Assembly: GCA_951406725.2 (NCBI GenBank) | Contig: OX597824.1 | Location: 77,624,001-77,688,000, forward strand | Source of the DNA: Octopus vulgaris | Lineage: Eukaryota | Direction of reading: 5' to 3' | DNA length: 64,000 bases | In this document: piece by piece, positions 5,336 through 59,010 of the stretch | Layout: each line of letters starts with the position of its first letter | How positions within the stretch are numbered: the stretch's first letter is position 1 | Notes under the pieces: model-generated | The model's database searches: none | Told to the model about the DNA's origin: nothing | The model's input: the letters and a program-made list of their open reading frames with translations, nothing else | Made by a program: the position numbers and the translations under genes

Positions 5336-5799
5336 CAATACCACAAAACACACACACATACACACGCGCAAAGGGGAAATTAATTTAAGTATTACAGAAC
5401 AGTATTGAAAATCGTAGGAGCGAGTAACTTTATTCCAGTCCTGAATTAGCCATCTATTGCGTCTTACAAATTGTCGACTTCAACCCAATCGATTGCAAAG
5501 GGACGTAATCGAGTTTAAGCTGCACCAAGAAAGTGGATATTTGATAAATAATGCAATAACAATATTCGCTGGTTTTTGATAACACGTTTCAAACATGCTC
5601 TTATAATATTACTGGAAAATATGGTTCTGCATAACTTGTTGACATTCACAGATGTTTTACTCTTAAAATGCTCGGAACTGTGTAAATATCGAGTGTCTGT
5701 GTGCGTGTATAAACGCATATACGAGTGAATGTAGTTTTCTTTGCCACTGACGGGTTTTTATATCTCTCCATTCTTGCATATCACACTGAAACTGTTGAA

Positions 5800-6022
5800 G
5801 CATACATACATACATACATGCATACATACATACACACGTACATACATACATACATACGTACGTACATACATACATTCATACATACATACGTACATACACA
5901 CATACGTACATACATACGTACATACATACGTACATACATACATATGTACATACAGAAATACATCAATACATATACTTACAAACATACTTACATACAGACA
6001 TGTATATATGTATGCATGTATG

Positions 6023-6062
<40 letters not shown>

Positions 6063-6154
6063 TATATATGTATGTATATCTATATTTATATATGTATATA
6101 TTTATATATGTATATATATGTTTGTATATATAAATATGTATATGTACGTATATA

Positions 6155-6189
<35 letters not shown>

Positions 6190-6200
6190 GTGTATATCTA
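5800..6200. repeat. (TACA)n/(TA)n/(TATG)n compound microsatellite
   Basis: Direct reading. Confidence 0.9.
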
Positions 6201-6360
6201 CGTTTTTGCTTATGTATGTAGCGCAAAATTTCGTCAGTGAACAGGTCGCGTTTTCAAAGCGACGAAAATATTTTGACACAAATTAAATTAAAATGTTGAA
6301 GTAAATCTAATGATTTTTGTGTTTGTAAATGGCTTATAAGCACCTTCCACGCTGTAATTG

Positions 6361-6416
<56 letters not shown>

Positions 6417-8328: not shown

Positions 8329-8540
8329 GGCGGTGAGCTGGCAGAATCGTTAGCACTCCGGGAAAAATGTTTAGCGGCATTTCGGCCGTTTACGTTCTGA
8401 GTTCAAACTCCGCTGAAGTCAGTTTTGTCTTTCGTCATTTCGGTGTCGATAAAATGAGCACCCCTTGAGCACTGGGGTCGAATTCATCGACATAAACCCT
8501 CCCTGAAACCTACTGGATTTGTACCAAAATTTCAAACTAG
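8329..8540 (+). mobile_element. Diverged SINE family O (ggcggcgagctggcagaa head, OK-like octopus SINE)
   Basis: Similar to the younger copies at 41.4-42.4k, 53.5k and 59.0k; box-B-like GAGTTCAAA. Confidence 0.7.
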
Positions 8541-8657
8541 TATTCTTGCATACAAGAAAACACACGCAAGCACACATGCGCACACACGCATACACGCACA
8601 CACACAAACACACACATAAACGCAAAAAACACATTCACATTCATCTAAATGTATGTA

Positions 8658-8729
<72 letters not shown>

Positions 8730-8919
8730 TCTGTGTGCATGTGTTTATATGTGTGTACGTTTGGTATAAGATACACATGTGTCTTAGAGTACATATCTCA
8801 AATAATATTTAATGAAAAAAATTTCAACGAGGTAGTTTTTGCAGAAAGTCCGCAATGAATGATCAAAAATTAATTAGAACTTTGTGTGAAGGAAATGGAA
8901 TGTAATGGTGGAATGAGGA

Positions 8920-8952
<33 letters not shown>

Positions 8953-9018
8953 TGTATGTATGTATGTATGTATGTATATATATATATATGTGTGTATGTA
9001 TATATAAATGTATACATA

Positions 9019-9089
<71 letters not shown>

Positions 9090-9403
9090 TAGTGTTGGTG
9101 TGCGTGTGTGTGTTTAATAGACCGTTAACACTAATTTATACACTCGGGGAAAGATATGAGTCCTCAGAAACAACGGTTTAATGTATACACAACTATCTCG
9201 GAATATATATACATTGAAAGACATTAAGTTCTCGACATCAAGAGAGATGCCATCCATCCATCCATACATACATACATACATACATACATACATACATACA
9301 TACATACATACATACATACAAACATACATACATACATACATGCATATATATGTATGTATGTATATATATATATTTGTATATGTGTGTACATGTATGTATA
9401 CAT

Positions 9404-9447
<44 letters not shown>

Positions 9448-9576
9448 ATATAATATAATATAATATAAGGATAAAATCACATTAATGATTTTTATGAGGT
9501 AGTCAGTATGCTATAAAATATTTATAGGTAATTTATACATTAGATTAATAATTATATACATATGTTTATAATTATA

Positions 9577-9960
9577 CTAGCAGTATCGCCCGGCGTTGCT
9601 CAGGTTTGTAAGGGAAATAACTATAAAGCATTTTTAGAGAGTTATAGCTTAAAAATAGCAAAAAAATGGAAAAAAATGATGGTAAATTTTTTTTGAGATT
9701 TAAAAAAGGTGGAGTTGCACCCCCTAGACAGTTTGTGGTTCGTGTTTCTGATTCTCGACCCCATGTCGAATTTATCGATTTTTTTCAGAACTGGGGGAAC
9801 TTTTCAAAATTTTCGCTGCGTTAGTTTTGAATTATGACATTGGGCTATGTGTGTGTCAAGTTTCATCAGAATCGGTTGAAAGCCGTGGTCAGGGTGAGGG
9901 TACAAGCAAACAGACACACAGAAACACGCACAGACAAACTGCCGTTTATATATAGAGAGA
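9577..9960 (-). mobile_element. Non-autonomous Helitron, subfamily 1
   Basis: Minus strand 5'-TC...GC-rich subterminal hairpin...CTAG-3', between A and T, no TSD; near-identical to 61213-61595. Confidence 0.85.
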
Positions 9961-9969
9961 TTAATGGAT

Positions 9970-10425
9970 CAAGGGTGAAAACGACCTATCTCCAACATGC
10001 TTGAAATGCCGATGCACTCAAACACTACCCAAAAACTCCGGATTAAATATACATATGGCCGAAATCGGGATAGTGAATGGATTTAAATTTGACTTATCTG
10101 GGATCTATACGTGCAAATATTTACGTGTAGACGTGCGAATCTGCTTTGTACGGTATGTATAGTTATTTATATTTATATTTCTTGTGTAATGTGTTGGCGA
10201 AGGTTAAAATGCTCGATTTTAGGGCTTTAATCCAGCAATTGCAATTGGACCCAATTCACAATTAACGTGACGTCTTTTTAATATTTTTTCACTATCCCGA
10301 TTTCAGCCTTGTGTACATTTAATCTTTAATATAAGTTTTTGGTAGTGAGTGTCCCGATATTTCAAGCATGTTTTTGCCCTTGCTCTCTTAATATAATTAT
10401 TACATATGTATATATTTACTAATCT

Positions 10426-10498
<73 letters not shown>

Positions 10499-10590
10499 TT
10501 TAGACATATATATATATATATATGTCTAAAGATATATATACATACATATATATATATTAATATATATGTATATATATATATATGTATATA

Positions 10591-10660
<70 letters not shown>

Positions 10661-10727
10661 GATTAGTAAATATATATATGTAATAATTATATTAAGAAGC
10701 AAGGGCAAAAACATGCTTGAAATATCG

Positions 10728-10731
<4 letters not shown>
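9970..10731. repeat. Nested inverted repeats (9970-10078 vs 10288-10382; 10351-10427 vs 10658-10731 around (TA)n)
   Basis: e.g. gtcccgatatttcaagcatgtttttgcccttgc is the reverse complement of gcaagggcaaaaacatgcttgaaatatcgggac. Confidence 0.8.
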
Positions 10732-10794
<63 letters not shown>

Positions 10795-10807
10795 TATATG
10801 CAGTATA

Positions 10808-10993
10808 TCACTTGATCACTTTGACCGACCAGTCCGTCAAGCGTCCATTTGACACCGCTGGTCACAGTACGCTGTCCACTTCTCTCTGGATCGCGCCTTT
10901 CTCATCCACGTGATCCCAATCGTCCTCTTGAAATCGTCACTCCACCGTCGTGGAGGTCTTCCAAGTGGTTTTTTCCGCTCACGCGGGTACCAC
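10808..10993 (-). mobile_element. 3' end of RTE-clade LINE
   Basis: WYPRERKKPLGRPPRRWSDDFK...W..KARSREKW matches the RTE ORF C-terminal motif; short 3'UTR gtgatcaagtga next to (TA)n. Confidence 0.85.
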
Positions 10994-11042
10994 GTGCAGT
11001 ACATATATATATATATGTATATATATTCATATATACACACAC

Positions 11043-11077
<35 letters not shown>

Positions 11078-11124
11078 CATTAATATATGTACGTACGTAT
11101 TTGCTTTAATAATTACGCGTATTT

Positions 11125-12002
11125 ATGTCTCTAGTGACCAATCTCGGTTTAATTGCAAGTTCACTCATAATTTCATCCAGTTGGTTGATGTATACATGCA
11201 CTGTAATTGACTTACCAGGTCTCATGAATCTGTAGTGGATGACGCCAGCGCTGGACCATCAAACAGACGCCATTAGCGTTTTTGGTGCATATTCTTTTGG
11301 GGATTGTGTTTTGGCACTTCGTCTTTATCCAACCACCGTGCAGAGCGCTTGCAATTATTGAAAAGAAACCACTTTTCATTATACGATGCAAAACCAGTTC
11401 GTTTCTATGCCGTGACAGCAAGTTTCAAGAAGATGTGTCATTTGATGTTCGTTCAGTTCGTGCGTTACCCCTATGTCCAGCTTCTTTACCTTACCGATGT
11501 GTTTCAGACGGTCCAATACTGATGAAATCGAAATATCAAACCTTGCTGCTAACTCACGCCTAGTTTGAGATATAGCCGCTTCCACTACAGTTTCCAGCTC
11601 ATCATTATCCACCTTGGTCTCAGGTGTATCACGGGGCTGATTTTCAAGTGTAAAGTCACCAGACCGGAACTTTTAAAACCTTCGACGTACAGTGCACTCA
11701 TTCACCACAGCTTCACCAAACACCTCATTGATGATTCAAGCTGTGTGAGATGCACTGGTTTCACGACGGAGCTCATATTCATAAACAACAGGAATTTTTG
11801 CTCTATCCATGGGTTCACAAAAATTGATTTACAAGAGGAAACTCGCAATATAATCAGAAACCATCAATTGCATTTCGAGAAGTGATGATGTAACTTATCA
11901 ATATCGTAAAACAAAGAATTGTCAGGTTAAAACATTAGAGTTAACGACTATCAAACTTGGTGCATAAGAAAATCGGACGTTTCATTCTTAATGACCTGAT
12001 AT
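11125..12002 (-). mobile_element. Decayed mariner transposon: one end plus N-terminal two-thirds of transposase
   Basis: ATG at 11810: MDRAKIPVVYEYELRR..INEVFGE..KFRSGDFTLENQPR..DNDELETVVE..TRRELAARF..LKHIGKVKKLD..HELNE; later PGKSIT..YINQL; stops and frameshifts; TA-bounded end near 12002. Confidence 0.85.
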
Positions 12003-12423
12003 ATAAAGTACGATTACTTAAGATATCACTATACATCTATATGTATAAGCTTATGTGGTCATGTATTTAATTGTGTATGTATGTTTGTGTATGTATCCAT
12101 GTATGTGTGTATGTATGTATGAATGAATGAATGAATGGATTATGTATGAATATGCATGCGCAGTCAATGCCATCTGGCTATAAAACTCCTCTGCAATCAC
12201 GTAATCTCACCAAGAGGCACGCTGGATAAGATTTTTCTGTTTTAGCCTCCGGCTGATCAAATTTTTATCAGTGTAATTCAATAGATGAAAAGTGTGCAGA
12301 AGCCCGCAGGATATACATACGTACATACAGTCATACAAAAAGACTCAATGCAAAACGAATACAAACTCGTATACACATAAATATACACACTTTTATATAA
12401 TTGCATAAATTTCTAAATCCACA

Positions 12424-12952
12424 CTAGCAGAATACCTGACATAGTTCAGGTTGAAATCTAACCCTATTCAGCCTGGAATTGCTCGTAATGATCGTATATT
12501 AGTTTGAATAACACACTATAGGAATTCTCTTTGAATGCTATCAGTCATTGATGAAAATATATTGCTTTGCTCAGCATTTATAGCCACTGTCAGTCTTATT
12601 CTCTGTTATAAATACGTGTTCAATATGAACAGTATATTTAAGGCAGAAAGCTGGCAGATCTGTAGCAGATCTGGAAACATTCTTCTTAATCTTTTTTTCC
12701 CCCTGTAGAGAATAGGGACTCAACAGTTGTTTTCCACTTTTTGATGTCATTGGCGTGTTTCTTGGCTGCTTCCCATGTCAGGCCGATGGAGTGGCGGTGT
12801 GGTAAGAAGCTTGCTTTCCAACCACATGGTTCCGGTTTCAGTCCCACTGCATGGCAGCTTGGGCAAGTAGCTTCTACAATGGTGTCGTGTAGACCGGGGC
12901 CTTATGAGTGGATTCGATAGACGGGAACTCAAAAAGCCCGTCGTATATATAC

Positions 12953-12983
<31 letters not shown>

Positions 12984-13001
12984 TGTATGTATGTATGTAT
13001 G

Positions 13002-13079
<78 letters not shown>

Positions 13080-13551
13080 CATATAGATATTCGTTTTAAT
13101 GAGCTTCCCGATATATGATATCAGATCTGTATGAGTCATAGCGTTAGAAATTCTTGGCACTTCTGCTGTCAGCACCTTGGGCCCCACGGTTTGATTGGTT
13201 TAACATCAAGAATAGAAAATGGATTGATAATGAGGCATTTGTTTCCAGCACATCTTACATTAATGTAAAGCATGATTTCGGAAGTTGAAGTCTTGTAAAT
13301 ATCAGTGTCTTTGGTAGTTTTTGATTTACATGGTAAATCTTAAGTGAGATGGAAAATCAAAGCATTTTTAAATTGAAAAATACTTCGCTTAGCATAGATG
13401 AAATTCTAAGCATAGTTGCATCTTCTCATTTGGCAATACCAGCACCAGTGAGAATAGGATTCTTGATGATATGTGTCATAAGATTCAAAGTTAATAGTCT
13501 TATGCCACTGCCAAACAGGATCCGGTCTAAATTACACACAAGGATTATTGG
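12424..13551 (-). pseudogene. Decayed Helitron 3' portion: PIF1-like helicase remnant (13265-13551) plus CTAG terminus
   Basis: Minus translation PIILVCNLD..GSGIRLL...ILTGAG..EDATMLRISSMLSEVFFNLKML*FSISL resembles Helitron PIMLLRNL..CNGTRL..ILTG..EDV.IPRI..PF.FKRLQFP; hairpin cctga..tcagg plus CTAG at 12424; SINE fragment 12789-12943 inside. Confidence 0.6.
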
Positions 13552-13674
13552 GAATATATTTTATTCTTAACTGACGAAAGCATTTTAAATTTCAGTAGGC
13601 GAGCGATCTATTTGCCTCTGAGCGACAACAATGTCAGCTGATTTGTATTTATGGCTAAGTTTTCGGATTACAGT

Positions 13675-13900
13675 GGAGGCGCGTGGCTTAATGGTTAGGG
13701 TGTCAACATTATGATCGTAAGATTGTGATTTCGATTCCTGGACCGGGCGACGGGTTTTGTTCTTGAGGAAAACACTTCATTTGACGTTGCTACAGTTCAT
13801 TCAGATGGCAAAAATGAGTAACGTCCAGCTGGGGAACACATGCGCCATAGAAACCAGGAAACCGTGTCCATGAGCCTGGCTAGGCTTTAAAAGGGCGCAT
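13675..13900 (+). mobile_element. tRNA-derived SINE, family C
   Basis: A box TGGCTTAATGG, B box TTTCGATTCC; related copy at 21905-22116 (-). Confidence 0.75.
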
Positions 13901-14893
13901 TTATTTTATTTCTCGGATTACAAGTTGCTGCTGCGTTTATGTGCAAGTAATGCTCTTTCGCACTACCACTTGTATCTTAGCTATAGGTTCAGATTTTGCC
14001 GAACAATGCCTTGAGATTGAATTGAGTAGGTGAAAACTCTGTGGGAATCTGTTGTCTATATAGACATAAATGCCTGCGCTTGTGTTTTGTCTCTCTCCAA
14101 CACTATTTGGCAGTCGGTGTTGGTTTATTTGCGTTACCGCAACTGAACATTTCAGCATAAGAGACCGGTAGAGTAAACACTATGAAGCGACTCCGAGTAC
14201 TGCTGACTATTTTGAGTTTCCAGATAACAGTGCCGGTACTTCGAGGAAATAATAAAGTAATTGTTCATTCAAAGAATATAGCTCTCAGCAAATTAGATTA
14301 GATTGCAACCAGCAGCATGAACACACAAAGTTTTCAAGCATGAACGCAACCTCACATACACACAACATATGTTCGTACTCAACTGACAAAGAACAACTTG
14401 TATGAGTGCTCTGAACAGACAACACTGACAATATGGTACAACCGGATAGCTCTTTTCGCTGTAGATACATGAATTCTTTTTATTTTCTTTTTTTTTTATT
14501 CTTTTGTGGTGGATACATTTCATCGAAGACATTCCCAAACTTTATGGTTTCCATTTCTGATATTTATGTAATATAAACCAAAGTTTGTAATTGCTATTTT
14601 TTCTTTTTTAATACGAATTCCAAACAATACAACCATACACCAATGCTACAGAAGCCTTGCATTCTTCAAGCTTTTGCAAAAATGTGGAATAACGTAACGC
14701 TAAGAATATCTTGACTCCACTTTAGTCAATGACCCTGAATGTCAATGGAAAATGTACTTCATGTCATGGAACTCTACTTTACAGCCTGGTTCTAAGAAAC
14801 GTAACACTTTCGTAATGGTATGAATGCTTATATGTGTTAGAAGAGCAAATGACTTCATTTGTTATTATAGTCTCAGTCTCTTTCTCTATTCTC

Positions 14894-14968
<75 letters not shown>

Positions 14969-15109
14969 CTCTCACTCTAATCTATGTATCTGTCTGTGTA
15001 TCTGTCTCTCTATCTATCTATACCTATGTGTCAAAATGTGACCTCGTGTGTACCGTTGGCGATTTTCTTTTCCTCTGTCTTCCCTTCTCTGGATCTTTCC
15101 TTCTCCTAT

Positions 15110-15144
15110 GTTTCCGACGAAGAGCTCCGCTCGAAACGTTAAAC
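15110..15144 (+). ncRNA. Minimal type-I hammerhead candidate (CCGACGA core variant)
   Basis: gttt CCGACGA a gagc-tcc-gctc GAAA cg TT aaac; palindromic AACGTT stem III. Confidence 0.65.
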
Positions 15145-15346
15145 CCTCCCTCCTTCTTTCCTTCTTTCCTGAGCGTCCAATAATACTATATTTGTTCCAC
15201 GTCCTCGCGTTGTTGTGTTTTTGGTGCTTTCTTGTTTGGATTAACTGTATATATATATATATATATATATAAACATACATATATATAAACACATATACAT
15301 ACGTATACATATATATACATATACAAACATGCATACATATATACAT

Positions 15347-15381
<35 letters not shown>

Positions 15382-15460
15382 GCATACATACATATGCATA
15401 TATATACATAACACACATACATATATATGCATACATACACATACATATATATGCATACAT

Positions 15461-15506
<46 letters not shown>

Positions 15507-16005
15507 ATATAATTATGTGTGCGTGTTCCCTTTCGGGGATTCACCATGAATGATTTCCTTCATGATGAATCACCAAATGGGACGAAAGCGCTAAATAAAT
15601 AGCTTTTATCCAAATCTTGACTACCCACTGTTTCTTTATGTACAGACACACGCACACATACACACATATTTATGTGTGTGTGTGTTTGTATATATGTATG
15701 TGTGTGTGTATGTGAGTGTGTGTGTGTGCGTGTCTGTGTGTGTGTGTGTGCGGATCAAATCAATTTGATTCTCCATTGCAGACTGTTTGTCGTTCGTGAA
15801 TGGCGCTCAACAGAGTCTGGAGCAATTGTACGAGTGAATGTACGAACGAAAGCAGTGCTCTCAACCTATTTATTGGGAGCTATATCTATGGATTCACGAA
15901 CGTCTGACCAACAGTCTGCATTGGAGAACCAAACTGTTTTGATCCATACATTTAATTCCCAGTAAATTGGTTGAGTGCCCTTCTTTCATTTGTCCACTCA
16001 CTCGT

Positions 16006-16092
<87 letters not shown>

Positions 16093-16096
<4 letters not shown>

Positions 16097-16365
16097 CGTG
16101 ATCACCGTGACGGACCAGGCTATCATGTTGCTACACATCGCTGGTCACAATGCGCTTTGCATTGTTTTAGCCTTCAAAGCGTGCAGACCAACAGAAGAAA
16201 GAGTGAGAGAAAGTTGTGGCGAAAGAGTACAGCAGGGATCGCCACCACCCCCTACCGGAGCCCCGTGGAGCTTTAGGTGTTTTTGCTCAACAAACACTCA
16301 CAACGCCCGGTCTGGGAATCGAAACCGCGAGTCCGCTGCCCTAACCACTGGGCCATTGCGCCTCC
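16093..16365 (-). mobile_element. tRNA-derived SINE family A with RTE-type tail
   Basis: Head ggaggcgcaatggcccagtggttagggcagcggactcgcgg; tail matches RTE 3'UTR at 10808. Confidence 0.88.
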
Positions 16366-16377
16366 ACACCCACACAT

Positions 16378-16467
<90 letters not shown>

Positions 16468-17159
16468 AGGTGATACAAAAATGGGACAACAAAACTTCCC
16501 GATAGACTATAGGAAGAAAACAAGGAAGGGACATTCGGAGTTTTCTTTTCTCAGTCGAGTTTCGGATTATCTTTGCAATTTCGGCTGGTTATACTCAAGA
16601 TTGCTTCAATTTGGCCAACTGCAAATAAAAACTAAGCTAAGAGCATTAGATTACTTGGAAGAAAGCAGCGAATGTATACGAAAACAAGGGCGCAAAAAAA
16701 AAACGGAGAATGTTACACAAATAAAAATAACAGATCATAACAACAGTTGTCTTTCGACTATGGACGGATTAAATTAAGCTGGCGTGTGTAGAAATAAAGC
16801 CTAACACCGGGGATACAAGATTTCACAGGCACAGGGAGGAATATGTATGCTGCACTGTACGGACGGCGACCGAACCAAGAAAGAAAGGACAGGCTTGGCC
16901 GAACACCGGTCACGTGGGGAGCGGTAGAGACAGAAGGACAGAAGAATTAAGGAGGGGCGAGAAAAATGACAGGGATACAGTGAAGTTAAAAGAGGAGGGA
17001 AATGAGCATGAAGAGAAGGGGAACGTGAGAGAGGGGGAACGAAAGAAGGAACTAAGTAAGCGTGAAAGCGCTGATAGAACGAAAGAAAGAGAGAAAGAAT
17101 TGAGTCGTACAAGATTTAGATAAATATAAATTTACGTATAAGAGACCCAAGTATGTACG

Positions 17160-17356
17160 GCGCATTGTTTTAGCCTTCAAATAACGCCACCCCGCTGGCT
17201 AAGGGTGCAGGCCAACAGAAGAAAGAGTGAGAGAAAGTTGTGGTGAAAGAGTACAGCCTCGTGGAGCTTTTAGGTGTTTTCGCTCAATAAACACTCACAA
17301 CGCCCGATCCTACGACCGCGAGTCCGCTGCCCTAACCACTAGGCCATTGCGCCTCC
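17160..17356 (-). mobile_element. SINE family A, internally deleted
   Basis: Same head and body blocks as 56881-57183. Confidence 0.8.
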
Positions 17357-17489
17357 ACATATATGTATATAAAAATACAAAATATATAAGCATTTGTCGT
17401 CACTCGTAGATGTTTACCTTACAATAAAGCGTACAAATAAAGTATTGAGTACAAATAAGGCATAAAATAGTTATAGTAGATAAATATCT

Positions 17490-17580
17490 TCTCCTACAGC
17501 TGTTTCTGGAATACCTGACCATGTGTACTATGTCACTATGTAACGAATTCACGTAATCCAAGTATCCCGTCATCGGAAAA
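17490..17580 (-). ncRNA. Hammerhead candidate with long stem II (CCGATGA variant)
   Basis: Minus: CCGATGA c gggatacttg...caggtattcc a GAAA cagctg TA ggag; palindrome ACAGCTGT; stem I weak. Confidence 0.55.
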
Positions 17581-17871
17581 ATCGAAGTAAATAGTGTAGA
17601 AAGACAGATTCTTAATTGAGGATATTAGTAGTAGTAGAATGTGTTCAGTCGATCATGGTGAATCCTGTACGTATTACGGTCGAGTTCTGATTTTATCGAT
17701 GTTATTTTGTCGAACCGCTACTTTATACGATACAGAAAGATACAATAAAGCAACGACGCTGTTTATACTGACAATAGCATAAATATACAACACCAATCAC
17801 ACACACATACAGACACACACACATTGGCACATGCTGTACATGTAGCAATGTGCATATATATGTGTGGGTGT

Positions 17872-17903
<32 letters not shown>

Positions 17904-18388
17904 AACTGCGCACACGTGCGATGTGTGTATGCGTGTGTATGTATGAGCGTGTGTTTGCGTGTGCGTGTACGTTTCTGTGTGTTGCCTACGGATATGGCTA
18001 TAGTGATGGCGAATGAGAATATTATTTGTAATCTGCCGTGTTTCTATGTTAAGACAAAAGCAACACGTATTTTTTCTGATGTAGGAGAGTGAGACAGACA
18101 AACAGTAGGATGAGAAACATAGAGAGAAAGACGAGAGAAAGATAGTTAGACAGACATGGAGACAAGCAGACGGAGGCAGAGACAGAGATTAAACGAATCA
18201 AGTGTATATAGTGTTAGGTAATGGAGAAGCAAACGGTGTGTTGGGGTGATACAGCTAATATAGTTGAAGACGGGAAAAGTGGTTACATCGCCTGCGGGAT
18301 TCGAACGTTGAGAGAAAGCGAAAGAGAGAATGAGAAAGACAGAGAGAAAATAGAAAAGATAAAGAAAGAGAAAAGAGGGAGAGAGCGC

Positions 18389-18445
<57 letters not shown>

Positions 18446-18457
18446 CATACATATATA

Positions 18458-18495
<38 letters not shown>

Positions 18496-18716
18496 CATAT
18501 ATATATGTATATATATATATATATATAATATATATGTATATATATATATATGTAATATATGTTATATATGTATATATACATATATATATACATATATATT
18601 TGTTTATATATGTATATATATATATATGTATATATAAATATATATATGTTTATATATGTATATATATGTATATATAAATATATATATGTTTATATATGTA
18701 TATATATGTACATATG

Positions 18717-18777
<61 letters not shown>

Positions 18778-18782
18778 TAGAC

Positions 18783-18817
<35 letters not shown>

Positions 18818-19119
18818 GAGGGAGTGAGGGAGTGAGAGAGTGAGTGAGTGAGAAAGTGAGTGGGAGCGAGTGAGATGGGATGGATTTATGGGGGTGGACG
18901 AGAAAGAATGAAGGTAAGACAGAATAAGAGAATGGGTGGAAGAAAACGAAATGGTAAAACGTGTGGTAGGTTAAAAGGGAAAGAAAAGCAGAGGAAATAT
19001 AGAGAGCGATGAAGGAAATGAAAGAGTAGGAGGAAAACAAGCTGCGGAAGGGTAGGAGTGGGAAGAAAATAGAAGTAGCATTAGATGTAGAGTGGGTTAT
19101 GAAGGATGGATGGATTGAT

Positions 19120-19128
19120 TGATGGATG

Positions 19129-19191
<63 letters not shown>

Positions 19192-19223
19192 TGATGGACA
19201 GACAGACAGACAGATACATAGAT

Positions 19224-19258
<35 letters not shown>

Positions 19259-19261
19259 TAC

Positions 19262-19310
<49 letters not shown>

Positions 19311-19342
19311 TACACAGACAGACAGGCAGACAGTTAGGTAAG

Positions 19343-19394
<52 letters not shown>

Positions 19395-19410
19395 CAGATA
19401 GATAGACAGA
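19120..19410. repeat. (GATA)n/(GACA)n microsatellites
   Basis: Direct reading. Confidence 0.95.
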
Positions 19411-19609
19411 TACTGAGAGAGAAGGAGGAAGGAATAGGGAGAGAGAGAAAGCGACTATATTTGAGAATGGAAGTTAAAGTGATTAAAATATACATGGCGA
19501 AAGACAAAGAGAGAGACAAAGAGAGAGAGAGAGAGACTGAATGAAAAAGAAAAAGCTAAGAATTGGGAAAAAATGAACGAGTTTGCATGTATACATACAT
19601 ACATACATA

Positions 19610-19770
19610 CAGGAGTGGCTGTGTGGTAAGTAGCTTGCTAACCAACCACATAGTTCCGGGTTCAGTCCCACTGCGTGGCATCTTGGGCAAGTGCCTTCTG
19701 CTACAGCTCCGGGCCGACCAATGCCTTGTGAGTGGATTTGGTAGACGGAAACTGAAAGAAGCCTGTCGTA

Positions 19771-19827
<57 letters not shown>

Positions 19828-20036
19828 ATGTGTGTGTGTTTGTCCCCCCAACATCGCTTGACAATCGATGCTGTGTTTACGTCCCTGTAACTTAGCGGTT
19901 CGGCAAAAGAGACCGATAGAATAAGTACTGGGCTTACAAAGAATAAGTCCCGGGGTTGATTTGCTCGACTAAAGGCGGTGCTCCAGCATGGCCGCAGTCA
20001 AATGACTGAAACAAGTAAAAGAGTAAAGAGTAAGAG
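19610..20036 (+). mobile_element. SINE family B (tRNA-like head, internal TA/TG microsatellite, tail ccagcatggccgcagtcaaatgactgaaacaagtaaaaga)
   Basis: More than 12 similar copies in the window; A-box-like TGGCTGTGTGG, B-box-like GGTTCAGTCCC. Confidence 0.88.
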
Positions 20037-20250
20037 TATACATACATACATACATACATACATACATACACATAAATATATGCATAGGGAATGATGAAGA
20101 AAGGGAGATAGAGAGAGTGGGAGAGAAAGGCAGACACAAAGTGTAACAGAAGAGGCATATATAGCAATGAGAATGAGTAAGCACTTCATTAAATGAGAGC
20201 GAATTGAAGATTGGAAGTATGGGTGAGATAGAGAGACAGACAGATAGATT

Positions 20251-20335
<85 letters not shown>

Positions 20336-20491
20336 TTTCTTTATTAGCCACACAGGGCTGCACACAGACAGGACAAATTACAAGGTAGAGCTTTTCTTTT
20401 GGGGGTAAAAAAAGGGGGTTTGGTTTTCGATCAAAAGGGATCGTAAAGGGAAAGAAAGAGGACAAAAAAAGGGGGGAATAAAATTTAAAAA

Positions 20492-20495
<4 letters not shown>
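20336..20495 (-). mobile_element. 3'UTR fragment of Tx1/L1-like LINE inserted in (GATA)n
   Basis: Matches 21550-21711 (aaagaaaagctctaccttgtaa..ctgtgtgcagccctgtgtgg..aataaagaaa); GATA repeats on both sides. Confidence 0.7.
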
Positions 20496-20525
<30 letters not shown>

Positions 20526-20549
20526 GGAGAGATAGATAGATAGATGGAG

Positions 20550-20624
<75 letters not shown>

Positions 20625-20665
20625 AAGATAGACATACAGATATAGATAGATAGAAAGAAAAACAT

Positions 20666-20721
<56 letters not shown>

Positions 20722-21184
20722 GAAGAAGGAGGACATGTAGGAAGGCATATTATGTGTGTCGTTGAGTGTGGAATGTTATTAAATTAGCTAATTATTAATT
20801 TTTAATTTCGTTGAATTAATAATGAAACGTTGAAAACAATTAACAACTGTAGCTCTTTAGTTTGTGAAGACAGAGAGAGAGAGAAAGAGAGAGAGTACGA
20901 GGGAGAGTACGAGGGAGAGAGTACGTGTGTGTGTCTGTGTGAGAGATAGAGAGATAGAGAGAGAGATAGAGAGAGACCGAAAGGGAATACCGGATTATTT
21001 ATTCCTGGAACGGACATTTATGTCAGTCAAGAATCTTGCGATAAATATTTGTTAAAAATAATTTTAATACGTTTCATTTTCGTGTTCGGTTGCAAGATTT
21101 TTGTATCTGTGTTAACTCAATTATCGTCGTACTCTCTGAGCGTCATCGATGCCAAAAAGATGCACACTCCAGTTGCAGTTCATT

Positions 21185-21711
21185 TTTAGCAAGGATGGCA
21201 CGTATGAATGACGAAGCCACCCTGAGCATAATCCTATGAACCCAGAAATTGAAAACAGAGGGTTACCCACTTGCAAACAAATGTGGTAACATATAACAAT
21301 ATTGACCAACGTTACCATGGTCTTTTTCGTAGGTTTTTCTTCCCACGGATAAACCTTACTTGCTTTCCCCTTTACACCATATATCATAACACTGTGATAC
21401 ACGATCCCTATTGATCCTTGTTTTTCCTCTTCCCCTTTTTTTCCCCTTTTTTCTTCTTTTTTCATTTCTCTTTTCTTTTGTTTCTTTTCCTTTTCTTTTT
21501 TATTTTTATTTTATTTATTTTTTTAAATTTTTAATTTTAATTTTTTTTTTTGTTCTTTTCTTCCCTTTTACGATCCCTCTTGATCGAAAACTTACGCCAC
21601 CCTCCTTTTTTCTTGTTTCTTTTGTTTTTTTGTTTTTTTCATCCCCCAAAAGAAAAGCTCTACCTTGTAACTTGTCCCATCTGTGTGCAGCCCTGTGTGG
21701 CCAATAAAGAA
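21185..21711 (+). mobile_element. 3' end of putative Tx1/L1-like LINE (ORF tail ARMARMNDEATLSIIL* plus T-rich 3'UTR)
   Basis: Short ORF end, pyrimidine-rich UTR, AATAAA terminus; second copy at 20336; clade assignment is inference. Confidence 0.55.
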
Positions 21712-21904
21712 ACTTAATTATCGATTAAACAACTAGTCAATTAATTTGCTCTTTTCTCTAGCACGAAAATACATAAGAGTGGTTACCTGATTTCCACAGC
21801 TTATAAATAGCACAATCCCCAACATTCCCCAGAACGGAGTGTTGCAGAATTTAAGGCGAGTAATTTTGAGGGGATTTAAGGCGAGTAATTTATGCTAACT
21901 CATA

Positions 21905-22116
21905 AGGGCCGGTTTCCCGGATCCCATGCCGCATGAATTCCCTACCAGGAGAGGACAGCGGCCTGTCGCAGGATTACTCATTCTTTGCCAGCTGAGTGGA
22001 CTGGAGCAACGTGAAATGGAGTGTTTTGCTCAAAAGCACAATGCATCGCCGGTGCAGGAATCGAAACCACAATCTTACGATCATGAGTCCAACACCCTAA
22101 CCACTAAGCCACGCGA
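21905..22116 (-). mobile_element. tRNA-derived SINE, family C
   Basis: Reverse complement of the 13675-type head. Confidence 0.72.
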
Positions 22117-24268: not shown

Positions 24269-24980
24269 TACTAAATATAATAATACATAGATTTTGCTTT
24301 ACTTTGATTATATCTATTTTTTTCCCTTCAATACTCCTAATGCCCATGTAGAACTCATTGTAGCGTCCTATATTTTCTACCGTACGCCGCTTTATCTGAT
24401 AATAATAAAAAGAGTTTATGCCACCACCACCCTACCTTTTTTTCTGGACATTTTCCACTATCTAAATAACTTCCTCTGAGAATTTATTTTTGTGTGTGTG
24501 TAATTGGTCAAGTGAATCTACAGCCATAGAGAATTAGGGCTTGAGAGAATATTAAATGATATAAATTTATGACCAGCAACTAGAATTTAACTGTCAACTC
24601 CTAGTGTCGTAATACTAGCTGCATTAAGTCTTTTGATGATGATAAGAAGGTAGATAAAAATTGTAGCTAAATTCCCAATCTCACGGCCCCGCTCTGTTTC
24701 CACTTCTGCCATTCCAAAATTATAGTAGTTTCTCTTTAAGCTTATTCTGCCATATTAGTAGCAGCATGGAATTCTTTCCTTCTCTAACTCTGATGAAATA
24801 TTTGCTAAAAATTACAATAGAATATCCGGGCTGTTGAAAATGTGTATTTTGCAACTGAAGATAGCGCTGTATTTCAAATTGATGTAATGCTTGCATTAAC
24901 ACCTTGACATCCTTGTTACTTATTTGTTTTATATACATTATATACATACATACAGATATATATATATATACATACATATA

Positions 24981-25064
<84 letters not shown>

Positions 25065-25066
<2 letters not shown>

Positions 25067-26560
25067 CAAATTATTACATTATATAAAAGGGCTTAGTAAA
25101 ATAAATTACTTTGCCACATACTGAACTCATTAGAAATAGTAGCTAAAAAAAACTTTTTTAGAACTATTTCTAATACTTAAAGAAAATCTCTCTCAAATAG
25201 TGTTTGCTCAATTCAACTCACGAAAGTATGGGGGTAAAGACATTAAAAAATCAAATGCAAAGGTTATTTGAGAACGTACGTTTCAAGATTAGTCAACTCG
25301 ACATTTCTATCATCAGCTCAGAACTCCTTGGTTTGGATTTGAAAACACTGAAAGTGGGAGCATACCCTTTCGGCTTCTTATCGCTTCTGAAGATCTGCTC
25401 GAAACTAACAGTGCCAGCAAACCCAAAAAAATGCAAGCGAAGAATTTCTGCTCTCCCCTTTCCACCAGCGTGGGTTAAAATCAGTAAACATTATGCTTTT
25501 TCGGTAAAATCCGAAGCATTTAAATAGAGAGAGATGAATTATAATTTCAATTTTTTTTGGGTTTGCTGGCACTGTTAGTTTCGAGCAGATCTTCAGAAGC
25601 GATAAGAAGCCGAAAGGGTATGCTCCCACTTTCAGTGTTTTCAAATCCAAACCAAGGAGTTCTGAGCTGATGATAGAAATGTCGAGTTGACTAATCTTGA
25701 AACGTACGTTCTCAAATAACATTTGCATTTGATTTTTTAATGTCTTTACCCCCATACTTTCGTGAGTTGAATTGAGCAAACACTATTTGAGAGAGATTTT
25801 CTTTAAGTATTAGAAATAGTTCTAAAAAAGTTTTTTTTAGCTACTATTTCTAATGAGTTCAGTATGTGGCAAAGTAATTTATTTTACTAAGCCCTTTTAT
25901 ATAATGTAATAATTTGAATTCGCCTTAAATGGTCCCTTTACATACTGAATACTTGGTGAAATTGATTAATAATTAATTAATTTTACCCTCAATTGTTGAA
26001 ATTATAATTCATCTCTCTCTATTTAAATGCTTCGGATTTTACCGAAAAAGCATAGTGTTTACTGATTTTAACCCACGCTGGTGGAAAGGGGAGAGCAGAA
26101 ATTCTTCGCTTGCATTTTTTTGGGTTTGCTGGCACTGTTAGTTTCGAGCAGATCTTCAGAAGCGATAAGAAGCCGAAAGATTATGCTCCCACTTTCAGTG
26201 TTTTCAAATCCAAACCAAGGAGTTCTGAGCTGATGATAGAAATGTCGAGTTGACTAATCTTGAAACGTACGTTCTCAAATAACCTTTGCATTTGATTTTT
26301 TAATGTCTTTACCCCCATACTTTCGTGAGTTGAATTGAGCAAACACTATTTGAGAGAGATTTTCTTTAAGTATTAGAAATAGTTCTAAAAAAGTTTTTTT
26401 AGCTACTATTTCTAATGAGTTCAGTATGTGGCAAAGTAATTTATTTTACTAAGCCCTTTTATATAATGTAATAATTTTAATTCGCCTTAAATGGTCCCTT
26501 TACATACTGAATACTTGGTGAAATTGATTAATAATTAATTAATTTTACCCTCAATTGTTG

Positions 26561-26563
<3 letters not shown>
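25065..26563. mobile_element. HHR-bearing 563-bp repeat: inverted copy (25065-25550, -) head-to-head with 1.8 tandem units (25551-26563, +), (TA)n on both sides
   Basis: Near-perfect inverted and direct repeats; HHR cores at 25667 and 26230 (+) and within 25269-25320 (-). Confidence 0.9.
25663..25714 (+). ncRNA. Type-I hammerhead ribozyme (copies at 26226-26277 +, 25269-25320 -, 35179-35230 +)
   Basis: tgag CTGATGA t aga-aat-gtc gagtt gac-taa-tct t GAAA cgtacg TT ctca; stem I tgag/ctca, palindrome AACGTACGTT; stem II imperfect. Confidence 0.75.
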
Positions 26564-26621
<58 letters not shown>

Positions 26622-26622
26622 C

Positions 26623-27625
26623 CCGTAAATATTAGAGAGTCAACTTTGAATATGTTAACTCTAGTGCTAGAAATAGGTCCGATCGGTAAAAGTCGCCGAC
26701 GATAAATCCACATAGAAATAGCACCACAATCAACGCTATGAAATTAAATTACTACTAAATAATGGATTAATGTTGTACAATTGTTTCTTCATTAACAAAA
26801 TGCAGATTATACTTACATAATTGTCTATGATTCATCAGCAACATTTGTCAATATAATTGATCAGACCCTTACAAGCGACGATTCTCATATGGTCCGATCA
26901 ATTACATTCTGTTGTAGTTACAAATTTCCCGCCGAGAGTAAATGCTAAGTGGAAGTGAATACCGCATGTAATATTTACTGCAGCATATCAAATCAATACA
27001 TTAAATAATGAGGGTGAATAAAATTATAGATATTAATTCAATAATACCCTTATTTTAACACCAAGCGACCTAGCACATGGTGTTAAAATAAGGGTATTAT
27101 TGAATTAATATCTATAATTTTATTCACCCTCATTATTTAATGTATTGATTTGATATGCTGCAGTAAATATTACATGCGGTATTCACTTCCACTTAGCATT
27201 TACTCTCGGCGGGAAATTTGTAACTACAACAGAATGTAATTGATCGGACCATATGAGAATCGTCGCTTGTAAGGGTCTGATCAATTATATTGACAAATGT
27301 TGCTGATGAATCATAGACAATTATGTAAGTATAATCTGCATTTTGTTAATGAAGAAACAATTGTACAACATTAATCCATTATTTAGTAGTAATTTAATTT
27401 CATAGCGTTGATTGTGGTGCTATTTCTATGTGGATTTATCGTCGGCGACTTTTACCGATCGGACCTATTTCTAGCACTAGAGTTAACATATTCAAAGTTG
27501 ACTCTCTAATATTTACGGATAAATATGAATTTGTGTCCCCGGTTTTTTGTGCTAGGTCGCTTGGTGTTAAAATAAGGGTATTATTGAATTAATATCTATA
27601 ATTTTATTCACCCTCATTATTTAAT
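26623..27625. mobile_element. HHR-bearing 484-bp repeat: 441-bp inverted arms with 14-nt spacer, plus ~64-bp terminal redundancy
   Basis: 26623-27063 is the reverse complement of 27078-27518; tggtgttaaaataaggg recurs at 27078 and 27562. Confidence 0.9.
27298..27370 (+). ncRNA. Type-I hammerhead ribozyme (mirror copy 26771-26843, -)
   Basis: tgttg CTGATGA a tcat-a-gacaa...ttgtt-a-atga a GAAA caattg TA caaca; 5-bp stem I, palindrome ACAATTGT, GUA triplet. Confidence 0.78.
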
Positions 27626-27649
27626 ATATATATATATATATATATATTG

Positions 27650-27880
27650 ATAGAAATGGCAAGACAACAAAACGATGAAAGAGACCTCGATATTATGTAA
27701 ATAGAGGAATTTATTTATAAAATAATATGTGACAATTATTCGGTAGCCATTATAAAACTCCGAGTTTCAGATGTCGGTGCGGAAACCCACGCCGGCATCT
27801 ATTCAGTTATCGGGCCATCGAAAAAAAAGCTCCGAAACTCGGAGTTTTATCATGGCTACCGAATAATTGTCACATATTAT
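27650..27880. mobile_element. HHR-family fold-back element related to 47097-47315
   Basis: Arms 27722-27768 and 27834-27880; minus-strand ataa CTGAATA gatgccgg..ccgacatc tGAAA ctcggag TT ttat (G8 mutated). Confidence 0.75.
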
Positions 27881-28364
27881 ATTTACATATATATATATAT
27901 ATTTATTTATTTATTTATTTATTTATTTATTGCTACCCCAATATATATGGTTTTGCAAATTTACAGCAACTTGTATACTCTAATTTATTTTTGCCTTCTT
28001 TGAATGTTGTAATATTTTCTACGTTAGAGCTTTTGATTGTTATTTCTGTCTTCCATATTTTGAGGCGGGGCGCGAACAGAATCGTTAGTACGTTAAACAA
28101 AATGCATAACGGCTTATCTTCAGGCTCGTCACGGTCTATGTTTAAATTTTCTACCGAAGTTTACTCTACCTTCTTTCTCTTTGGGGTCGATTAAATAAGA
28201 ACTGGTCGAACTCTGGGGTCAATTTCATCGACTAAACCATCACCCCTTAAGATTGTTAGTTTCTCGCCAAAATGTGAAATCATTATCTTCCCTACTTTAA
28301 TTTCATTTCTCTCAACTTTTCTCCCCGTTTGAAATGTTCCTTTAGTTATTTAATGTTCTGACAT

Positions 28365-28830
28365 ACTCTTTTACCCTTTTACTTGTTTCAGTCATTTGAC
28401 TGCGGCCATGCTGGAGCACCGCCTTTAGTCGAGCAAATCGACCCCGGGACTTATTCTTTGTAAGCCCAGTACTTATTCTATCAATGTCTTTTGCCGAACC
28501 GCTTAGTGACGGGGACGTAAACACACCAGCATCGGTTGTCAAGCAATGCTAGGGGGACAAACACAAACACACAAACATATATACACACACACTTATATAT
28601 ATATACATATATACGACAGGCTTCTTTCAGTTTATTTGTAAAATAATATGTGACAATTATTCGGTAGCCATGATAAAACTCCGAGTTTCATCTACCAAAT
28701 CCACTCACAAGGCATTGGTCGGCCCGGGGCTATAGTAGAAGACACTAGCGCAAGATGCCACGCAGTGGGACTGAACCCGGAACCATGTGGTTGGTTAGCA
28801 AGCTACTTACCACACAGCCACTCCTGCGCC
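28365..28830 (-). mobile_element. SINE family B carrying a 56-bp foreign insert (28634-28689)
   Basis: Family B match interrupted at cagttt. Confidence 0.85.
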
Positions 28831-34791: not shown

Positions 34792-35851
<1,060 letters not shown>

Positions 35852-38017: not shown

Positions 38018-38440
38018 TTTCTTTTACTTGTTTCATTCATTTGACTGCGGCCACTCCACAGAGACACACGCGAACCCTTAACGTAGTTTTCGGGGAGATT
38101 CAGCGCGACACAGTGTGACAAGGATTGCCCTTTAAAATACTCCACAGAGACACACGCGAACCCTTAACGTAGTTTTCGGGGAGATTCAGCGCGACACAGT
38201 GTGACAAGGATTGCCCTTTAAAATACTCCACAGAGACACACGCGAACCCTTAACGTAGTTTTCGGGGAGATTCAGCGCGACACAGTGTGACAAGGATTGC
38301 CCTTTAAAATACAGGTACAACAGAAACAGGAAGAAAGAGTACGAGAAAGTTGTGGTGAAAGACTACAGCAGGTTTCGCCACCACCCACTGCCGTTAGCCT
38401 CGTGGAGCTTTAGATGTTTTCGCTCAATAACCACTCACAA
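38018..38440 (-). mobile_element. Chimeric SINE: family A body with 3 x 86-bp tandem repeat (38053-38312) plus family B tail
   Basis: actccacagagacacacgcg.. at 38053, 38139 and 38225. Confidence 0.85.
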
Positions 38441-41159: not shown

Positions 41160-42950
41160 CTAGAGGCAAAAAGGCTGAAATGTTGGTAGGATGAGTAAGT
41201 CAATTAAATCGACCACAATGTTCAACTGGTACTTGTTTTATCGATCTCGTCCGGATGAACGGTGAAGTCGACCTTGGCAGAATTTGAACTCGCTATCCGG
41301 CGTGCTAATGATTCCGCCAGCTCACTTCTTTAATGGCTGTAATAATGATTTCAAGTTTTTGCTACAAGGTCAGCTTGGGGGAGGGGATTAAGTCGATGAC
41401 ATCGACCCCAGGGTATAACTGATATGTATTAAATCGATTCCGAAAGGATGAAAGCCAAAGTCGACTTCAGCGGAATTTGAACTCAGAACGTAACGGCGGA
41501 CGAAATACCTATTTCTTTACTGTCCACAAGGGGCTAAACACAGAGAGGACAAACAAGGACAGACAAACGAATTAAGTCGATCATATCGACCCCAGTGCGT
41601 AACTGGTACTTATCTAATCGACCCCGAAAGGATGGAAGGCAAAGTCGACCTCGGCCGAATTTGAACTCAGAACGTAACAGCAGACGAAATACCTATTTCT
41701 TTATTACCCACAAGGGGCTAAACACAGAGGGAACAAACAAGGACAGACATAGGTATTAAGTCGATTACATCGACTCCAGTTCGTAACTGGTACTTAATTT
41801 ATCGACCCCGAAAGGATGAAAGGCAAAGTCGACCTCGGCGGAATTTGAACTCAGAACGTAACAGCAGACGAAATACCGCTGAGCGTTTCGCCCGGCGTGC
41901 TAACAATTCTTTGTCTACACCATGCACAAGGCCCGAAATCTTTGACTGGTGAGGGGACCAGTCGAGTAGATCGACCCCAGTCGCATCTGTACTTAATTTA
42001 TCGACCCCGAAAGGATGAAAAGCAAAGTCGACCTCGGCGGAATTTGAACTCAGAACGTGAAGGCAGACGAAATACTGCTAACCATTTTGCCCGGCGTGCT
42101 AACGTTTCTGGCCGATCGTTGCATTAATATTCTTTTCTATTCTAGGCACAAGACCCGAAATTTTGGGGTAGAGGGAGCAGTCGATTAGATCGACCACGGA
42201 TTAAGTCGATTACACTGACCCCAGTGCGTAACTGGTACTTATTTAATCGACCCCGAAAAGATGAAAGGCAAAGTCGACCTCAGCGGAATTTGAACTCACA
42301 ACGTTGCGCCAGACAAAATACCGCTAAGCATTTCGCCCGGCACGCTAACGTTTCTGCCGGCCCGCCGCCTTCCTAATGGCTGTAATAATGATGATAAATG
42401 TTTCGAATTTCTGGCAGAAAAAGCCAGTAATGTTAGGGAAATAAGCGGGGTGAGTATGTTTATAACTCTGATCTCAGTATTTGATGCCGAAAGGAAGAAA
42501 GGTAATGGTGACCTTGGCGGAATTTGAACACAAGTTATAAAGCGGGAAGGAATGCTACTTTGCACGTTGTCCAGTTTGCTAACGATTCTGCCAGCTGAGT
42601 TCTTTTTAATTTGGGTACAAGGCAACACATTTTTAGGAAGTAGGCCAGCCGATTGCATCGACTCCCCCACCACTTACTCACAAAACTAGATTAGTACTAC
42701 ATTTTATGGACATTGAAAGCATAAAATCTAAAATTGGCTCCTGACCAATTAGAGCTCAGAACGTAAAACGTGGGAAGAAATGACGTTCTAACGATGCTGT
42801 CATTTTGCAGAATAATTGTTTGTAGTATAAGCATAAAGCCTCACATTTTATTGGGAGAGAGCGTTAGTTGATTAAGTCGATTGCAATACGTGACAGCTGC
42901 CATCTTTTATCGAGCATGAAGGGATGAGAGAAGACAAAGTTGACCACGGA
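41160..42950 (-). mobile_element. Co-oriented cluster of about 8 SINE family O units, including head-to-tail multimers
   Basis: Repeated gaaaggatgaaaggcaaagtcgacctcggcggaatttgaactcagaacgt; junctions at cgaaatacc|tatttcttta. Confidence 0.88.
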
Positions 42951-47096: not shown

Positions 47097-47315
47097 TGTG
47101 ACAATTAGTTGGTTGTCATAATAAAACTGATAGTTACGGATGCCGGGGCTGAGGCCTGCTCCGGCATTTCATCTGTTGTTTGTCTTAATAACTGATGAGA
47201 TGCCGGAGCAGGCTTCAGCCCCGGCATCCGAAAATCTGAGTTTTATTACGACAACCAGCTAATTGTCACATATTTATAGATAAATTCCTCTGTTTACATA
47301 ACATCGAGATCTCAT
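47097..47315. mobile_element. Fold-back HHR element; intact core at 47186-47248 (+)
   Basis: taataa CTGATGA gatgccgg-agcaggcttcagcc-ccggcatc c GAAA atctgag TT ttatta; decayed mirror copy 47097-47177. Confidence 0.8.
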
Positions 47316-47442
47316 TCATTACCATTAATATACATACATACACACACATACACACACACATACCCACACATATATATATACACATATATATCTTTATATA
47401 TATATATGTACATGTATATTTAGATATATACATATATATGTG

Positions 47443-58945: not shown

Positions 58946-59010
58946 GATAGACAAGAATTTAATTAGTGTTAATGTAGAAAGAGCCTTCTTAGCAAAGCAT
59001 ATTCTATACC

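Follow-up and report, generated by a model that had tools for sequence, protein, structure and literature searches.

The DNA under study, hereafter the window, is a stretch of 64,000 nucleotides from the genome of Octopus vulgaris. Between its positions 25065 and 26563 it holds an insertion built from a non-coding repeat of 563 nt, within which no open reading frame has a Pfam match. The insertion consists of an inverted arm (25065-25551, minus strand) and 1.8 direct units (25552-26563, plus strand); its copies are ~99% identical, and it is bounded as a whole by (TA)n tracts, on the left a (TACA)n/(TA)n tract that was the insertion target (24930-25062) and on the right a (TA)n flank (26563-26621). 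Direct copy 2 (26001-26563) is a complete unit, includes an internal hairpin (26372-26416, u372-416), and is used throughout as the reference, its positions being numbered u1 to u563. Direct copy 1 (25552-26000) is truncated at its 5' end (u115-563), lies head-to-head with the inverted arm and is identical to the reference at 444 of 448 positions. The inverted arm comprises the last ~6 nt of one unit followed by u1-480, and 476 of its 480 aligned bases are identical to the reference. Its 3' end (25065) lies at what we term the short start site and has no tail, while that of direct copy 2 (26563) lies at the long start site and has one, the tail (26470-26563, ~93 nt) being the stretch between the two fixed 3' end sites. 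An earlier note on this DNA had described a non-coding 563-nt repeat with an inverted copy between (TA)n tracts, a description that the locus alignment bears out; the direct part amounts to 1.8 units, short of two full ones.

Each copy carries a type-I hammerhead ribozyme motif (HHR). HHR 1 (25663-25714, plus strand) is made up of stem I (25663-66/25711-14), the core (25667-73), helix II (25674-98), a GAAA element (25699-702) and stem III with its palindromic loop (25702-709), and its predicted cut falls after position 25710, at a GUU triplet. For HHR 2 (26226-26277, plus strand; core start 26230) the cut is predicted after 26273, and for the HHR of the inverted arm (25269-25320, minus strand; core start 25316) after 25273. 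Nucleotide H17 thus sits at exactly the two positions, 25710 and 26273, where cleavage had earlier been placed. The 563-nt spacing of the two direct HHRs (25667 and 26230) likewise stands; their supposed identity does not, as one base differs in distal helix I (u284). The RNA between the two predicted cuts (25711-26273) would be a monomer of 563 nt, with 33% GC and strong predicted self-pairing (z = -6.9).

The core CUGANGA / GAAA / NUH is present together with helices I, II and III. Stem I has 4 bp and may extend further, helix II is long and begins with a U.U pair, stem III has 2 bp and is capped by the palindromic loop GUAC, and the triplet is GUU. Because of this build of stem I, helix II and the stem III/loop, the motif is canonical-like and not of the "minimal" type to which it had been assigned. 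The first pair of helix II (10.1-11.1) is not purine-pyrimidine but U.U in family A, as we call the copies of this unit, and A.A in some of its relatives; a U.U pair at the base of helix II has also been described for the axolotl HHR_Amex2 (PMC7229834). The type-I search proposed in the earlier note had a divided outcome: a full HHR descriptor found four matches in the window (25667, 26230, 25316 on the minus strand and 35183), three of them in the insertion, and none in 30 dinucleotide shuffles of the window, whereas an Rfam search returned no hammerhead match either at the gathering score or at E<=10. Modelling disfavours the monomeric hammerhead fold, at -4.6 kcal/mol compared with -11.5 kcal/mol for the MFE structure, and gives stem III a probability of 0.03 in the local fold; in a dimer co-fold the palindromes are predicted to pair, yet the strict double hammerhead is not the MFE structure. 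GUU is a weak triplet for hammerhead cleavage. Self-excision and circularity of the 563-nt RNA remain predictions.

A further insertion of family A lies downstream in the window (34792-35433, plus strand; u398-563 followed by u1 to ~u478, HHR core 35183), again flanked by TA tracts. Other repeats are found nearby. Directly adjoining the 563-nt insertion is another HHR-bearing repeat, family C (26605-27629), with a period of 484 nt, inverted arms at 26605-27063 and 27078-27536 and a partial tandem extending to 27623. Its HHR cores (27303 on the plus and 26838 on the minus strand) have a 6-bp stem I, a palindromic loop III and a GUA triplet, and it ends in a terminal hairpin that resembles that of family A, with a tail of ~100 nt. 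Tandem arrays with periods of 86 and 184 nt and SINE-like sequence occupy 38053-38312, 41387-41877 and 59006-59378, and the longest open frame of the window, 514 codons at 3162-4706, is probably a LINE remnant.

A search of the genome (2.8 Gb in 227 contigs) indicates that family A comprises ~1,400 units, as counted by 1,399 exact matches to a 23-mer that follows closely on the 3' side of the cut; a 46-mer over the HHR gave 110 exact matches, and a search with the unit gave 152 matches from the 40 scored of 1,719 candidates. The copies are dispersed over many chromosomes and their arrays reach 14 units. We sampled all 46 loci on chromosome C1 that hold the first 100 listed 23-mer matches, together with 14 chosen multi-unit loci. 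Over these 60 loci and the window, the mean divergence between units is 0.46% within an arm, 0.8% between the arms of a locus and 3.8% between loci. At least four sister families exist, found by tracing a conserved module at the 3' end of the unit: A' (L101:491-572), B (L097:1075-1685), a tandem of ~605 nt units, E (L362), a tandem of 561-564 nt units, and F (L333/L343), a further HHR-bearing relative. Their HHR helices differ from those of family A and covary, while the core is fixed. Family A has complete HHRs in consecutive head-to-tail units (25667 and 26230 in the window), no protein-coding capacity, a GC content below 45%, and dispersed, recently mobile copies; judged by its sequence, it meets the definition of an animal non-LTR retrozyme (PMC7229834; 10.64898/2026.07.22.740005).

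The manner in which such copies end is the most informative aspect of the family. The 46 C1 loci yielded 89 arms, of which 79 outer ones were kept and 10 were dropped as internal, short or N-flanked. The 3' ends of the outer arms fall at two sites ~90 nt apart, 38 at u557-563 and 41 at u444-481, and every two-armed locus (34/34 on C1) has one end of each kind. Nearly all outer 3' ends (79/81 in the 46 loci) meet (TA)3 within 20 nt, the (TA)n targeting of the Hydra, Neptune and Naiad clades of Penelope-like elements (PLEs). Sister family B (8 two-armed loci) pairs its ends in the same way, and so does H2 (4 two-armed loci), an autonomous PLE family of the Hydra type. The 5' ends, in contrast to these fixed 3' ends, are scattered, with a mean read-through of ~430 nt. 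Three of them lie at the cleavage site (u270-277) on C1 against 1.8 expected (P = 0.28); an apparent enrichment there in a first sample (two ends at u274-275) was rejected by the less biased C1 sample, and the copy ends do lie off the cleavage site, as was originally remarked, both at the locus and in the C1 mapping. The short-end arm is the longer arm in 22/33 loci and is therefore not a fold-back copy of the other.

Partial tandems, an inverted 5'-truncated copy and a tail at one end are the published features of PLE insertions (PMC8557442; PMC3846280). The tail corresponds to the stretch between two internal start sites of the reverse transcriptase (RT), as mapped in vitro, and insertion nicks and extends both target strands (PMC11167929). 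Since the ends of family A have this PLE-type structure, copying by PLE enzymes is likely, and the combination of one tail, an inverted truncated arm and partial tandems is that of a non-autonomous PLE. We are highly confident that family A is a non-autonomous element mobilised in the PLE manner. The decisive feature is the pair of fixed 3' ends, the PLE tail, which the earlier reading lacked; its wider proposal of a young tandem family that carries HHRs, is non-coding and is mobilised in trans gains support from the genome-wide copies, which in the loci checked are joined to no PLE reading frame, and the copy-number and end survey that it advised yielded the ~1,400 units and the two fixed ends.

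Both start sites sit on a conserved 3' fold (26420-26549) in which a long stem (26420-29/26502-11) encloses the short start site (26465-26480) and a terminal hairpin (26517-26549) lies beyond it. Across families A, B, E and F, 31 pairs are predicted, 6 of them with compensatory change, and this module may well be the docking site of the RT. Compared with six autonomous 3' ends (H1, H1c, H2, H3, H4 and Neptune), the modules of A, B, E and F showed no homology (z <= 1.4, and for family A alone z <= 0.6).

The genome holds several intact PLEs that are candidate helpers. A family of the Neptune type encodes 781 aa with a CX4CxxC linker, and three families of the Hydra type, H1 (980-1,090 aa), H2 (717 aa) and H3 (727 aa), share RWK/RWR and DKT motifs, with a CxCX5C motif in H1 and H2; a Pfam search of three Hydra reading frames detected none. 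PLEs of the Hydra clade are abundant, with 16,572 first-look candidates for H1 (L161-L180) and 22,027 for H3 (L301-L320). H1, whose linker contains a long asparagine-rich insert like that of rotifer Penelopes, resembles family A in the build of its HHRs and in its (TA)n targets, and its copies end at two 3' sites ~115 nt apart. H2 has two 3' ends ~75 nt apart and is very young, as 150/150 scored endonuclease matches are identical (L311, L313, L241-L270). In all 43 matches counted, among which overlapping loci may figure twice, position 4 of its HHR core is altered, and one of its loci (L313) is a head-to-tail tandem. In the 3' UTRs of H3 and the Neptune family, the regular expression used found no HHR. 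Short 3' ends ~80% related to those of H2 also occur in the window (27640-27905, 28631-28690 and 47188-47319), with an HHR or degenerate HHR (core 47192) and a GUU triplet.

A partner carrying both an open reading frame and the 3' end of family A was not found among ~170 PLE stretches, drawn from 5,739-22,027 candidates per search, in a survey that covered the Neptune type, H1, H2, H3 and the tail-related B, E and F; one further GIY-YIG type occurs at L068. B and E, considered as such partners, were rejected as further tandem families, and F as a further HHR-bearing relative. We presume that the GIY-YIG exon at L064:3040-3330 belongs to a host endonuclease, since it has the look of the SLX1 type rather than of a PLE. 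The contiguous frame for RT and GIY-YIG that defines an autonomous PLE does not adjoin the repeat, and the linkage check proposed at the outset found none joined in any locus examined. By architecture, our best guess is that the helper is a PLE of the Hydra clade.

Has the hammerhead itself been maintained by selection? Variants inherited by whole loci affect 0/11 core sites, 1/25 fixed HHR sites and 103/488 other sites (p = 0.023), the HHR core is intact in 158/159 units of family A, and those inherited variants that do fall in the HHR region cluster at N7, 10.1/11.1 and loop II. Because the 3' module is equally conserved, the tail and u417-470 being so to the same degree as the HHR, this test is only modest. 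Comparison between families provides stronger evidence of selection. In 10 HHRs from 7 families (A, its sisters A', B, E and F, the neighbouring C, and three Hydra HHRs) the core is invariant throughout (10/10), and 90% of 140 helix cells pair, 40 of them with changes on both sides. That level of pairing was reached in 0/500 shuffles, a procedure that ignores relatedness and in which the row of family E is shifted by a longer loop; slid controls gave 26-43%. Loop III is self-complementary throughout, though its letters differ between families, which fits the dimeric cleavage described in PMC4209133.

The arms of a single locus are closely alike. They differ by less than 1% in 38/41 loci, as against 5.6% of 1,826 pairs of different loci, so that a locus usually derives its two arms from a single template, or a single source locus; the clear exception is L227, whose inverted arm is 3.9% diverged and points to two templates. 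Outside homopolymers, no pair of loci has two or more within-locus polymorphisms in common, as a fresh start of every insertion from a single monomer would predict, although 20/95 of the minor alleles found within loci are fixed elsewhere. From the single template, and from 5' ends that are not piled up at the cut site, it follows that a monomer cut to linear form cannot have been the main template, which leaves either a circle or a multimer that was not cleaved. Arms that stop at the same point on a different lap, looked for as a sign of a circle, were seen in 2/37 loci, at or near palindromic junctions, and are not decisive. Long arrays, of 5, 7 and 7 units in the set of 79 arms, are more frequent than one geometric law allows, and in the 14-unit array of L227 (C3:97.078-97.086 Mb) variants recur in non-adjacent units, at multiples of three (u445 in units 2, 5 and 8; u172 in units 3, 9 and 12). 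These over-long arrays and recurrent variants suggest some later amplification or assembly noise, and they weigh against the circle. Of the listed sequencing runs that contain the unit, none is on record as RNA; contigs of runs that we guessed to be RNA, their type not being on record, contain the unit and its head-to-tail joint, a joint that is the same in a genomic tandem as in a circle. In these contigs depth does not gauge expression, and the flank that served as control is itself repetitive.

We favour, with a probability of roughly 60%, the view that family A is copied in trans, by the RT-endonuclease of a PLE that is probably of the Hydra clade, from a circular RNA monomer. A tandem locus would be transcribed, two HHRs would pair through their palindromic loop III and cut after GUU, and the freed 563-nt monomer would be closed into a circle by a host ligase. 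A dimer of the PLE protein may then bind the 3' RNA module and, to judge from the ends, nick both strands of a (TA)n tract, reverse transcription being presumably primed on one template at the two internal sites ~90 nt apart. Each cDNA would pass both the cut and the joint between units and extend over a variable distance, in keeping with the read-through and the arrays of up to 14 units observed, and the two would be joined head-to-head, giving the observed pattern of one arm with a tail and one without. Tandems of PLEs templated by circles have already been proposed (PMC4209133), and circular RNAs have been shown for the retrozymes of mussel, coral and axolotl (PMC7229834). Against this view, only one of nine Xenopus retrozyme dimers was cleaved in vitro (10.64898/2026.07.22.740005).

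The same PLE-mobilised, non-autonomous element might, in a version that we consider rather unlikely, dispense with the circle and be copied from uncleaved linear read-through multimers of tandem source loci, its HHR being slow, protein-assisted or a mere trimmer of transcripts. This would account equally well for every end pattern, and the poor fold predicted for the monomeric HHR as well as the within-locus alleles that are fixed elsewhere agree with it. So do the results for the PLE PAc: mutating the HHR left in vitro insertion unaffected, and none of the RNA reads terminated at the HHR site (PMC11167929). The H2 tandem with an altered core points in the same direction, as tandems therefore need not depend on cleavage. 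We prefer the circle because a mean read-through of ~430 nt would erode linear arrays in each generation, yet diverged sub-lineages (L187, L198 and L221, with 0.1-0.4% divergence within the locus and 2-3% to the nearest other locus) keep homogeneous multi-unit loci; moreover, the order of variants is not inherited between loci, and the core is kept across five non-autonomous families.

Two further explanations were weighed. The unit could be no more than the pLTR, or 3' end, belonging to an autonomous PLE, copies with the ORF having escaped a survey of just ~170 stretches, and the autonomous Hydra PLEs of this genome do resemble it in HHR build, in (TA)n targeting and in having two 3' ends; but arrays reach 14 units without an ORF, the tail of the previous unit stands directly upstream of u1, and those tblastn matches to PLE proteins near loci of A, B, E and F that were inspected belong to separate insertions, so that we hold this to be very improbable. 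Even less credible is a DNA-level satellite or fold-back repeat arising by unequal exchange, or an artefact of assembly, with an incidental HHR. Some two-armed junctions on palindromes with equal 5' points, and the recurrent variants of the 14-unit array, are what such an origin might leave. It is nonetheless largely refuted already by the dispersal over many chromosomes, by two fixed 3' ends combined with random 5' ends, by a short-end arm that is often the longer, which is impossible by fold-back copying, and by the want of HHR matches in the shuffled window; as for the mis-assembly that the earlier note wished to see checked, the head-to-tail joint is present in contigs of 4/4 independent sequencing runs.

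Returning to the circular template, a broader and rather unlikely extension is that A, A', B, E and F form an octopus-type superfamily of RNA parasites with an RT-docking fold of their own, unrelated in sequence to the sampled helpers, which replicates as a circular RNA primed at two sites simultaneously by one PLE dimer, both arms of an insertion being rolled out from the one circle. As the sampled active helpers (H2, H3 and Neptune) have an altered HHR or none, the ribozyme would in that case be kept by the parasite. Since both class and mechanism are published, the degree of surprise is limited. Family A nevertheless supplies direct evidence, from end structure, for the mobilisation of a retrozyme by PLEs: a strict end rule, a single template for the two arms, and a conserved RNA module of 130 nt that marks both start sites. 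It bears on how PLEs build tandem and inverted insertions, on the role of their hammerheads and on whether retrozymes move via circles, and the young Hydra-clade reading frames in the same genome make the identity of the helper and the choice between circle and multimer testable in vitro. If the broader proposal of a circle primed at two sites is true, thousands of insertions document two-site rolling-circle TPRT in the genome, and the unit is a small, defined RNA substrate with which to test it.

A literature search returned no report of these families in cephalopods, supplementary repeat libraries being outside its scope, and the main text of PMC13282606, considered apart from its supplementary library, contains neither "ribozyme" nor "hammerhead"; this cephalopod set of ribozyme repeats is apparently undescribed. 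Animal non-LTR retrozymes are likewise non-coding head-to-tail repeats with one type-I HHR per unit, a GC content below 45%, dimers to multimers, a highly self-paired monomer and co-occurring PLEs (PMC7229834; 10.64898/2026.07.22.740005). Current descriptions treat them as non-autonomous derivatives of PLEs and give their units as 51-972 bp (10.64898/2026.07.22.740005), and hence the contrast formerly drawn between a retrozyme and a plain pLTR is largely false, and the monomer of 563 nt is not the comparatively long one it was taken for, though the published retrozymes studied experimentally measure 170-400 nt. The octopus family differs from them in its GUU triplet and long helix II, and its mobilisation by PLEs is read from the insertion ends, whereas theirs was deduced from co-occurrence and pLTR homology, a homology that family A shares with no sampled autonomous PLE.

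Hydra-clade PLEs (PMC8557442; here H1, H2 and H3) resemble family A in (TA)n insertion, a canonical HHR with a palindromic loop III, partial tandems, an inverted 5'-truncated arm and a tail at one end, of ~75-115 nt in H1 and H2. Family A, by contrast, has no ORF, its 3' end is not homologous to those of H1, H1c, H2, H3, H4 or Neptune, and its HHR lies 240-330 nt from the ends; its tail of ~93 nt compares with 30-40 bp for PLEs in general (PMC8557442). The Poseidon element PAc of the green anole also has two RT start sites, nicks both strands and uses an AT-rich target, but it is autonomous, and its start sites lie 30-40 nt apart in an AC-rich stem-loop inside the ORF (PMC11167929). The MRC1-type elements of Chlamys are likewise non-autonomous PLE derivatives with multicopy head-to-tail insertions, but, unlike family A, they are generally without HHRs and share 3' similarity with autonomous partners (PMC8557442). 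The class of retrozymes and the proposed mechanism are thus already in print; what the octopus family adds is the PLE signature of its ends, the rule of one tail and one short end, and the RT-docking fold that we propose.
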